Source: a virus (taxonomy: Duplodnaviria > Heunggongvirae > Uroviricota > Caudoviricetes). Taken from it: 16,781 nucleotides of DNA. The stretch is taken from the IMG/VR virus record IMGVR_UViG_2859810971_000002. One strand, written 5' to 3'. A program made the position numbers. Below are positions 6,601 to 9,337 of the stretch, in pieces (within the stretch, counting starts at the first letter, position 1; each line of letters begins with the position of its first letter).

Positions 6601-9337
6601 TACCAAATTTTACAATTCGGATAACTCTGCCGCCCCTGCCAGCAGGCACGGGCGGCGTTCTCATGCATTCAAATCTGACGGGTATCAGCACGACCCCTGC
6701 ACCGAAGAACAGGCTGAATGGCTGATTCAGCGCTACCGCAGACACGGATACGAGATTAAGAAAGCCCTCAGTCTCGATTATCGTCACTGGATAATCTTCG
6801 TCAGGCTCCCTTATTCCGAACGGCCACCGCGTCCGTCCTGCACATTCCAGCAACGGATCTGGAGGTAATGTGCGGGTATTACTTCGACCTGTTCTGGTTC
6901 CGGAACTCGGGCTGGTGGTCCTTAAGCCAGGCCGTGAATCCATGCCGGTATTCCACAATACCCGGGTACTGGTGGAGCCGGAACCGAAAAGCATGCGTAA
7001 TCTGCCGTCCGGGGTCGTTCCTGCCGTTCGCCAGCCGCTAGTGGAAGACAAAACATTGCTGCCGTTTTTCAGTAACGCACGGGTGATTCGTGCTGCTGGT
7101 GGTGCTGGCGCATTGTCTGACTGGCTGTTGCGCCATATTAAATCCTGCCAGTGGCCACACGGCGATTATCATCACAGCGAAACCGTCATTCACCGTTATG
7201 GTACCGGCGCAATGGTGTTGTGCTGGCACTGCGACAACCAGTTGCGTGACCAGACATCCGAATCACTCGAGCAACTTGCTCATCAAAACCTGTCAGCATG
7301 GATGATTGACGTCATCGGTCACGCAATAAGCGGTACGCAGGAGCGTGAATTATCTCTGGCTGAATTATCCTGGTGGGCGGTCCGCAATCAGGTGGCGGAC
7401 GCGCTACCGGAAGCGGTATTACGTCGTTCGCTGGGGTTGCGTGCGGAAAAAATCCGCTCAATGTACCGTGAAAGCGACATCGTGCCGGGAGAGCAGACCG
7501 CCACCAGCATACTGAAGCAGCGCACAAAAAATCTTGCGCCGCTGCCTCACGCCCACCAGCAACAGAATCCACCACAGGAAGAGACGGTGGTCAGCATTGC
7601 CGTTGATCCGGAATCTCCGGCTCAGTATCTCCAGCGCCAGAAACCACAACGGGAAGAGATGCCTGTATACACGCGCTGGGTAAAAACGCAGAAATGCATG
7701 ACGTGTGGCAATCAGGCAGATGATCCGCACCACATCATTGCTCATGGACTGGGAGGGATGGGAACAAAGGCTGACGATTTGTTTGTTATTCCGCTGTGTC
7801 GTAAATGCCATAACGAACTACACGCCGGGGTAAAAGATTTTGAAGAAAAACACGGTAGTCAGTTGTTGTTGCTGATTCGTTTTTTAATGCACGCGAGAAA
7901 TTCGGGTGTTCTGAAGTGGAAAGCATAAATGACCGAACGCATAGAATTTGTTTTGCCTTACCCGCCAACGGTGAACACCTACTGGCGACGTCGTGGCAGC
8001 ACATATTTTGTATCAAAAGCCGGTGAGCGTTATCGCCGTGATGTGGCGCTAATTGTTCGCCAGCAGCGACTGAAATTAAACCTGTCCGGAAGGCTGGCGA
8101 TAAAGATTATTGCAGAGCCACCGGATAAGCGCCGTCGTGACCTGGACAATATCCTGAAGGCACCGCTGGATGCGCTGACGCATGCTGGACTACTTATAGA
8201 CGACGAGCAGTTTGATGAAATCAATATTGTGCGCGGTCAGCTCGTTCCTGGTGGGCGGCTGGGGATAAAAATCACAGAACTGGGGTGCGCATGAATAACC
8301 AGTATTTACAGTTTGTGCGTGAGCAGCTCATTATCGCCACCGCTGATTTGAGTGGGGCAACAAAAGGTCAGCTTGAAGCCTGGCAAGAGAATGCCATGTT
8401 CGATACAGGGCGTTACAGGCGTAAAAAAATCCGGTACCGCGATGAAGTGACTGGAAAAATGATAACGCGGGATAATCCACCAATCCCGGGAAAGCAATCG
8501 CTGGCGAAGGGGACGTCAATTCCTCTGGTCAGTCCGGTTGAGTTTTCGACATCATCGTGGCGGCGGGCTGTTCTGTCTCTTGAAGAACATCATAAAGCCT
8601 AGTTGTTGTGGTGTTACAGCGGGAGTATTTGTTGGGAATATCAGATCGCGATAACACAGTGGGCGTGGAATGAATTTAATGCTCAATCCGGTACCAGAAA
8701 AATTGCAGGGAAAACGCAGGAACGCCTGAAAAAATTAATCTGGCTGGCGGCGCAGGCAGTAAAAGCAGAACTTTTTGGTGGGGAAGGTTATGAATACCAG
8801 GAGCTGGCATTACTGGCGGGAGTGACAACTAAAAACTGGTCCAAAACATTTACTCGTCACTGGGTTGCAATGAAACACATTTTTCACCGACTGGATAGTG
8901 AGGCTTTATTGTTTGTAATGAGAACACGTTCAAAAAAAAGACGGCATTTTCAAAGCAAAGTGTTGCAAAAGTAGATTGAAAGGCATATATTCATGCAAAT
9001 CTGATACTTTGCCGATTTTGTACGTGATGGCAAAAGCAAACAAAACCCGCCCACAAGCGGGTTTTTTGTGCCACTTATCTCGGATAGACATGGTGAATGC
9101 GCTGGTGGAGGAGATAAGGGTGATTTTTGAATGCTTGCAACATTGATTTCGTAACGTTATTATCCTGCGCCCGGCCCTTTAGCTCAGTGGTGAGAGCGAG
9201 CGACTCATAATCGCCAGGTCGCTGGTTCAAATCCAGCAAGGGCCACCAACCGCCACTAGCTCATCAGGAAAGAGCGTCAACCCTTTAAGTTGAGTGTGCG
9301 AGGTTCGAGTCCCCGGTGGCGGTCCAGTGCCGACTTG

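Follow-up and report, generated by a model that had tools for sequence, protein, structure and literature searches.

The stretch of DNA analysed here, 16,781 nucleotides (nt) long and referred to as the window, comes from IMG/VR virus record IMGVR_UViG_2859810971_000002 (Caudoviricetes) and is a defective lambdoid (lambda-like) prophage. It contains an array of four packed tRNA genes at positions 9173-9482, and this work concerns the second of them, a gene with the anticodon UUU that is separated by 1 nt from the gene before it and is called here the Lys-type tRNA. The array is composed as follows:

9173-9248, plus strand: tRNA with anticodon CAU, first of the array, annotated as tRNA-Ile in RefSeq (ileZ-type, presumably lysidine-modified); found by ARAGORN, Rfam and RefSeq
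9250-9326, plus strand: Lys-type tRNA, 77 nt, anticodon UUU, with encoded CCA; found by ARAGORN, Rfam, argN homology and covariation
9329-9404, plus strand: tRNA-Thr(UGU); found by ARAGORN and by comparison with K-12 thrU
9408-9482, plus strand: tRNA-Gly(UCC); found by ARAGORN and identical to K-12 glyT

A sequence-only reading of the window had proposed that a full cloverleaf can be drawn at 9250-9326, and had suggested covariance scoring as a check. Both tools applied agreed with the proposal. ARAGORN called a tRNA-Lys(ttt) at exactly these positions, and the Rfam tRNA model RF00005 matched 9250-9323 with 44.4 bits, above the model's gathering threshold of 29 (E = 9e-7 over the whole window). 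The acceptor stem, CCGCCAC/GTGGCGG, has C1-G72 as its first pair and is followed by the connecting bases UA; the D stem GCTC/GAGC encloses the D loop AUCAGGAAA; G26 precedes the anticodon stem UCAAC/GUUGA (9277-9281 and 9289-9293); and the variable bases GUGUG lead to the T stem CGAGG/CCCCG, with the T loop UUCGAGU and the discriminator base U73. The anticodon loop, CCUUUAA, is made up of C32 (9282), C33 (9283), U34-U36 (9284-9286), A37 and A38. In total, 20 of the 21 pairs are standard, and the T stem contains the mismatch, where A51 (9301) faces C63 (9313). The tertiary positions U8, A14 and G18G19, together with a T loop that fits UUCRANY, are conserved according to the sequence and the Rfam alignment, whereas the U-turn base U33 is replaced by the C at 9283. 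All three oddities listed in the sequence-only reading, namely C33, C1-G72 and the T-stem mismatch, are thus present. That reading also held that a better fold with a canonical loop would speak against it, and none was produced by any tool: the Rfam alignment made with Infernal kept the loop register of ARAGORN, with the C opposite the consensus U33 and a single non-standard pair in the T stem. The match to the tRNA model is far above chance, and the Lys-type tRNA is a real, intact tRNA gene; the neighbouring tRNAs of the array score well above it (65-73 bits).

Relationship to the argN family

A comparison with homologous prophage arrays, another check put forward in the sequence-only reading, pointed to the origin of the gene. 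The Lys-type tRNA is an anticodon-switched, derived branch of the phage argN (tRNA-Arg UCG) family and not itself an argN. In Stx and lambdoid phages such as Stx2a_F349 (AP012530), whose array is ileZ-argN-argO, argN occupies the same slot, second after the ileZ-type tRNA, with the gene for the antiterminator Q upstream and the lysis or stx genes downstream. Both tRNAs share C1-G72, U73, the D arm and the T arm, and are identical at 63-65 of the 77 bases; the A51·C63 mismatch is also found in the Stx2a allele, and most argN-type alleles of the slot in IMG/VR have the perfect T stem CGGGG/CCCCG. They differ in the anticodon loop, which is CUUCGAA in argN (anticodon UCG, U33) and CCUUUAA in the Lys-type tRNA (UUU, C33), and in the stem pairs 27-43 and 30-40 and the acceptor pair 7-66, which have been exchanged. 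This comparison alters the meaning of the oddities. The canonical Stx2a argN, which has U33, scores 43.0 bits, even less than the 44.4 bits of the Lys-type tRNA, so that a low covariance score is no mark of decay, and neither C1-G72 nor the A·C mismatch is a sign of it, since both occur in argN together with a normal U33. Of the three oddities, only C33 is specific to the Lys-type lineage. As a side observation, the slot can also hold chimeras that join the 5' half of argN to the 3' half of argO and have the anticodon UCU.

The relationship to the tRNA-Lys(UUU) of the host is of a different kind. Host lysT and its paralogues in K-12 share the anticodon UUU, and their loop, CUUUUAA, matches CCUUUAA everywhere but at position 33, whereas G1-C72, A73, the stem GUUGA/UCAAU and the length of 76 nt are features of their own. 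A decayed host lysT was therefore rejected as the source, since the likeness to lysT is confined to universally conserved tRNA positions. The sequence-only reading had suggested a decaying tRNA-Lys-like gene: descent from tRNA-Lys has to be given up in favour of argN, and decay itself was neither shown nor excluded.

Two of the three loop changes with respect to argN lie in the anticodon, and together they recreate the host tRNA-Lys loop except at position 33 (position 38 in a sister allele described below). Two anticodon changes that rebuild the host loop are not expected from random decay. Among 20 distinct family members, the cells of the cloverleaf were paired in 96.4% of cases, compared with 29-53% in slid controls, and four pairs had changed on both sides: 7-66, 27-43 and 30-40, which separate the Lys type from most argN-type members, and 4-69, which varies within the Lys type. 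These compensated pairs show that the anticodon switch occurred in a molecule selected to stay a tRNA. According to this scheme, C35 and G36 of an ancestral phage tRNA-Arg(UCG) would have changed to U, giving an anticodon loop equal to that of the host tRNA-Lys(UUU), and three stem pairs would have been re-compensated. With argN as outgroup, the loop of the Lys-type ancestor was most likely CUUUUAA, and the lineage would then have split into a common C33/A38 allele, whose branch acquired C33 together with A51, and a rare U33/U38 allele, whose branch acquired U38.

Descent from a tRNA-Arg raises the possibility that the molecule is still charged by ArgRS through A20 and inserts arginine at AAA and AAG codons. 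The main determinant of ArgRS identity is A20 and the other major one is C35, with U73 among the bacterial Arg determinants; LysRS reads the UUU anticodon as its main signal, plus A73 (PMC9976931). The Lys-type tRNA keeps A20 and carries U73 where LysRS needs A73, and it has lost C35 and presents all three anticodon bases read by LysRS (U34-U35-U36), the transplantation of UUU being sufficient for lysine identity in other systems (PMC9976931). Further, miscoding of lysine codons as arginine would probably be selected against in an allele carried by about 9% of the genomes. An arginine acceptor is, for these reasons, considered highly improbable.

tRNA nucleases and a possible role

The host tRNA-Lys(UUU) is the target of several tRNA nucleases, and the Lys-type tRNA is its isoacceptor (PMC2610378, PMC12409363, PMC13056530). 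PrrC cleaves the host molecule 3' of U33 and RloC removes nucleotide 34 (PMC2610378). The AriB effector of PARIS cuts at U36AAUC↓A41, a cleavage that is abolished by U39A and reduced by A41C (PMC12409363), and the Schlafen protein RorSlfn5 cuts between positions 30 and 31 (PMC13056530). In the corresponding region, the Lys-type tRNA, whose anticodon stem has no relation to that of the host, reads U36AAGUU41, with G39-U40-U41 instead of the host U39-C40-A41, and thus the AriB motif is absent; at the PrrC junction it has C33 for the host U33. Among the closest known systems is phage T5's tRNA-Lys(UUU), which neutralises PARIS (PMC11464382, PMC12409363). It is likewise encoded by a phage and its 3' anticodon stem also differs from the host at the AriB site, where it reads A39-C40-C41. 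In contrast, T5 is virulent and encodes about 24 tRNAs, and the resistance and rescue provided by its tRNA-Lys are experimental results, whereas the Lys-type tRNA has a temperate lambdoid carrier, a tRNA-Arg body and C33, and is known from sequence.

The reading that we tentatively prefer, and regard as plausible rather than probable, is that the Lys-type tRNA is a phage-supplied spare, a nuclease-insensitive tRNA-Lys(UUU) for late expression. Transcription of the array would start from a tRNA-type promoter of its own and, in lytic growth, late transcription antiterminated by Q would contribute as well; the transcript would be processed into the four tRNAs. LysRS would charge the Lys-type tRNA through UUU, probably weakly, and the product would read AAA and, less well, AAG. 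We infer that the molecule would escape the nucleases that destroy the host tRNA-Lys(UUU), because the AriB site U39-C40↓A41 is absent and a C occupies the nucleotide after which PrrC cuts, and that in this way it would sustain late translation of the phage. The supply of a scarce codon is a weak reason to carry the gene, because AAA does not belong to the rare codons and six tRNA-Lys(UUU) genes are present in the host, five of them in the one K-12 cluster examined.

The consequences of C33 are harder to judge. The t6A37 enzymes of E. coli have C33 as an anti-determinant, and EcTsaBCDE was blocked by it on another substrate (PMC8887486), so that C33 probably also blocks t6A37 formation in the Lys-type tRNA. 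Natural tRNAs with a working C33 are known, namely the eukaryotic initiator tRNAs and yeast tRNA-Leu(GAG) (PMC8887486, PMC13492127), and the latter functions about as well as its U33 version (PMC13492127). These examples are eukaryotic, and the E. coli t6A37 block (PMC8887486) is of consequence for a tRNA that, like the Lys type, would read ANN codons. By analogy, the tolerance of C33 in yeast tRNA-Leu(GAG) (PMC13492127) and its recurrence in unrelated phage arrays are consistent with a functional spare tRNA. In the array of IMGVR_UViG_3300025916_000008 (L149:3801-6034), C33 was found in 4 of 34 tRNAs (Ser GGA, Arg UCU, Glu CUC and Asn GUU), and in that of Ga0182024_10385765 (L403:461-634) in 2 of 11 (Leu GAG and Tyr GUA), all with C32-C33 in a normal 7-nt loop. 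A bacterial comparison with 117 distinct tRNAs from 120 unrelated contigs gave two non-U33 calls that look like artefacts, a sample too small to speak of enrichment.

A stronger version of the preferred reading makes C33 itself adaptive. C33 and the foreign stem would together hide the spare tRNA-Lys from PrrC, RloC, AriB and Schlafen, with the U38 of the sister allele as a second, independent solution to the same problem, and changes at position 33 would be a general phage tactic, also reflected in the C33 tRNAs of the two unrelated arrays; the replacement of U33 would at the same time prevent t6A37. This extension we consider unlikely; C33 may be useful or a tolerated defect.

If the molecule were little used in translation, it could instead be a decoy RNA that binds and occupies nucleases or modifying enzymes aimed at tRNA-Lys. 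Non-productive complexes of phage tRNA and effector were raised as a possibility in the AriB study (PMC12409363), and in the Lys-type tRNA a Lys-like loop sits on a foreign body whose identity elements are poor for LysRS (U73) as well as for ArgRS (U35) (PMC9976931). Nevertheless, AriB binding is not expected with its motif absent, the product of one gene copy is unlikely to tie up a nuclease once it is activated, and the sequence cannot tell a decoy from a weak tRNA; a decoy seems very unlikely.

Alleles, distribution and constraint

The family was surveyed by sampling IMG/VR with a T-arm anchor and with an upstream-tRNA anchor, the anchor columns being masked in diversity counts. The C33 Lys type was represented by 111 copies in at least 15 haplotypes, all with C33, and with C, U or A at position 32. 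The array is carried by about 506 of 5,426 complete E. coli genomes, taking as carriers those that match 80% or more of a query of 461 nt laid across the four genes. In E. coli FDAARGOS_944 it is 99.8% identical and is flanked by Q and the lysis genes; the RefSeq annotation of its four genes is tRNA-Ile, -Lys, -Thr and -Gly. It is also present in the deposited phages PhiR47_1, vB_EcoS-689R5, Evi and the PPompW group; the annotation of vB_EcoS-689R5 omits the Lys-type gene. The U33 sister allele, found in IMGVR_UViG_2861053794_000003 and, e.g., in ECOR29, has the loop CUUUUAU. It shares with the Lys type the scaffold, the anticodon UUU, the stem UCAAC/GUUGA and the slot after the Ile2 tRNA, and differs from the window allele in U33, U38, G51-C63 (which gives a perfect T stem), a compensated U4-A69 pair and A26; its array consists of Ile2 and Lys only. 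In targeted scans it turned up once in IMG/VR and twice in a metagenome collection; about 20 complete E. coli genomes carry it, and among such genomes the C33 allele is about 25 times commoner.

The existence of a better-formed relative brings in the most serious alternative, which we judge possible but doubtful: the Lys-type tRNA would be a crippled or decaying accessory tRNA-Lys, functional at one time like the U33 allele, in which the changes U33-to-C and G51-to-A were neutral or mildly harmful and which has become common only by hitch-hiking on a successful, mobile Ile2-Lys-Thr-Gly cassette. It would be dispensable and contribute little or nothing to translation. Much of the evidence that speaks for this alternative weighs, by the same token, against a spare tRNA-Lys. 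The sister allele, besides its perfect T stem, scores 53.2 bits against 44.4 (9 bits more) and adopts the cloverleaf at minimum energy, whereas the minimum-energy fold of the window allele is not a cloverleaf. Judged by canonical rules, the two changes that the C33 lineage has acquired, C33 and A51·C63, are both unfavourable. C33 blocks t6A37 in E. coli, and the dependence of tRNA-Lys on being modified is strong (PMC8887486, PMC9976931), with unmodified tRNA-Lys being charged 140-fold less well (PMC9976931); U73 and a probable loss of t6A37 should impair both charging by LysRS and decoding (PMC9976931, PMC8887486). Some C33 haplotypes have C8, the PPompW group has a one-base deletion in the D stem, and in 36 of 257 arrays (14%) the slot gave no tRNA call, because the copy is wrecked, which indicates that the slot is dispensable. 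The invariance of C33 in 111 copies is not informative, because at a diversity of about 0.16 any site would be invariant about 84% of the time, and C33 fixity was consequently rejected as proof of selection. Finally, the prophage of the window is dead, with a nonsense codon in Q and insertion elements in place of its late genes.

Other points tell against a broader defence function of the array or against convergence. No host-type lysT arm with C33 was found in IMG/VR, so that by that test there is no convergence. The tRNA-Thr of the array equals K-12 thrU except for A9G, and its anticodon arm is still that of the host, ACUGA-CUUGUAA-UCAGU, in which the AriB motif UAAUC↓A and the CNG motif of P2 OLD are both found (PMC12409363, PMC12445682). 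Because these motifs are kept and not one of the tRNA-Thr copies in 77 related loci is an anticodon-arm variant, the array as a whole does not appear to be tuned against AriB or OLD; the idea of an array tuned to PARIS or P2 OLD was dropped, tRNA-Thr and tRNA-Gly being plain host copies. Literature searches for the ileZ/argN or the Lys-type array returned no usable paper on the tRNA.

Against decay stand the following observations. The main haplotype keeps 20 of 21 pairs and the checked tertiary positions, and its A·C mismatch also occurs in the widespread Stx2a argN. The minimum-energy criterion is weak, because the tRNA-Thr of the array, a host copy, likewise fails to give a cloverleaf. In 77 four-tRNA loci, segregating sites per site amounted to 0.164 in the Lys-type tRNA and 0.184, 0.132 and 0.093 in its three neighbours, so that its conservation is comparable to that of bona fide tRNAs; the mosaic flanks reached about 0.9, although these are not neutral references. 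Within the C33 clade, about six changes preserve pairing, several of them at 4-16 copies, including the wobble-preserving ones, and four or five break a pair and are mostly singletons. This polymorphism leans towards constraint, yet is not significantly different from the neutral expectation, and can for that reason also be read as decay. A gross deletion was found in just 1 of 111 copies, and the C33 allele has become, as mentioned, far commoner than its U33 sister.

A recurrent wrecked allele of the argN slot, CCGCCATTAGCTTATCAGGAAGAGCAGACGACACGATAACAGGG..., was seen in about 24 copies among the loci retrieved with the upstream-tRNA anchor. It carries about 25 nt of unrelated sequence in place of the anticodon arm, and only the ends of the acceptor stem and T arm are left.

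Expression signals, prophage setting and significance

The array is surrounded by elements that may serve its transcription and by the remains of a lambdoid late region. DUF968, RusA and phage antiterminator Q genes lie upstream, and a P21-type holin gene followed by IS66- and IS3-family elements lies downstream. The features of the window outside the array are:

2185-2260, minus strand: tRNA-Asn(GUU); ARAGORN
3252-3341, plus strand: tRNA-Ser(CGA); ARAGORN
3369-4409, minus strand: open reading frame (ORF) of 346 amino acids just after the tRNA-Asn/tRNA-Ser stretch; the best E. coli matches annotate tyrosine integrases here
6097-6272: Rfam sok antitoxin RNA, adjoining a hok-type ORF position; 118.9 bits
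8285-8974, plus strand: antitermination protein Q, interrupted at 8600-8602 by a TAG in frame; both halves match Pfam PF06323
9042-9068, no strand assigned (minus strand in the scan): GC-rich hairpin bordered by runs of A and T, located after Q and before the array; putative role only
9135-9163, plus strand: sigma-70-type promoter-like element (-35 TTGCAA, 17-nt spacer, -10 TATTAT); presumed activity
9775-9990, plus strand: P21-type holin S; annotation of window proteins
10089-13130: IS66-family (three ORFs) and IS3-family (two ORFs) elements; Pfam and ORF analysis
15599-15778: Rfam CssrB; 230.2 bits
16535-16738: Rfam IS009; 129.1 bits

The promoter-like element is followed by the GC-rich discriminator CCTGCGCCC, directly 5' of the array, and is at least 90% conserved over the 77 loci, whereas the DNA farther upstream is mosaic. 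The hairpin at 9042-9068 is a candidate for a tR'-like terminator of the late operon. Directly 3' of the array, at 9487-9612, there are two long inverted repeats, GTCTTTCAGTC...GACTGAAAGAC and ATGAATGATCGC...GCGATCATTCAT, the latter flanking a T run, which may form the terminator of the array or a regulatory element. An STnc100 small RNA (sRNA) was matched by Rfam downstream of the arrays of a Stx2a phage (L003:3702-3913, 158.5 bits) and of phage Evi (L409:2574-2760, 119.9 bits), and no Rfam match to it was obtained in the window. As regards the last two genes of the array, tRNA-Thr and tRNA-Gly are 3 nt apart, while in K-12 thrU and glyT are separated by tyrU and a spacer, and the pair (9329-9482) looks like a recent capture of host genes from which tyrU has been deleted. 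G9 in tRNA-Thr was found in 8 of the 77 related loci, most of which have the host A9.

The prophage is defective, because its lysis and late region after the holin has been replaced by the insertion elements at 10089-13130. Its integration site is probably the tRNA-Ser gene. Coverage of the window stays at or below 48% in every complete E. coli genome, and this low coverage, together with the insertion elements and matches to sRNAs named after Shigella, suggests a Shigella-like, IS-rich genome. The codon at the site of the in-frame TAG in Q is TGG in 83 of 83 homologues, whichever tRNA follows, and the change from TGG to TAG is private to the window. The corresponding Q gene of E. coli FDAARGOS_944 carries a frameshift according to its annotation, which indicates that the gene was inactivated independently in two remnants of this prophage type.

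The proximity of a stop codon and an unusual loop bears on the proposal of the sequence-only reading that the tRNA might have unusual decoding properties. In the form of a recoding tRNA, the loop would lack the U33 turn, and the shifted triplet U35-U36-A37 would read UAA or cause frameshifting. It is true that C33 removes the canonical U-turn donor, that the next base is a U and that an in-frame stop is found in Q just upstream. However, this stop is TAG and not UAA, it is private to the window, and the loop has the normal 7 nt; reading of a shifted triplet from a loop of this size is, to our knowledge, without precedent. The proposal thus found no support, the anticodon being a plain UUU, and such recoding is hardly credible. 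A suppressor or recoding link to the TAG in Q was also discarded, since the stop is private to the window, and the anticodon UUU is not complementary to a stop codon.

Part of this picture was already known: the gene has a RefSeq annotation as tRNA-Lys, and nuclease evasion by phage tRNAs is an established phenomenon. In the literature searched, no description was found of the derivation from argN by an anticodon switch, the fixed C33 or the pair of C33 and U33 alleles. Phage tRNAs have lately been shown to beat tRNA-cleaving defences, as in the cases of T5 against PARIS and Retron-Eco7 and of a phage tRNA-Thr against P2 OLD, and nearly all of the work on counter-defence tRNAs concerns virulent phages with large tRNA sets. 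If the Lys-type tRNA is a spare tRNA-Lys as tentatively preferred here, about 9% of complete E. coli genomes would carry a counter-defence tRNA from a temperate phage. If, on the contrary, it is inert, annotation counts a probably crippled gene as a tRNA-Lys in hundreds of genomes. In addition, the Lys-type tRNA is a clean case of a tRNA whose codon family was changed by anticodon mutation while its stems were compensated, and the C33 and U33 alleles on one body constitute a natural experiment on the most conserved nucleotide of the anticodon loop.

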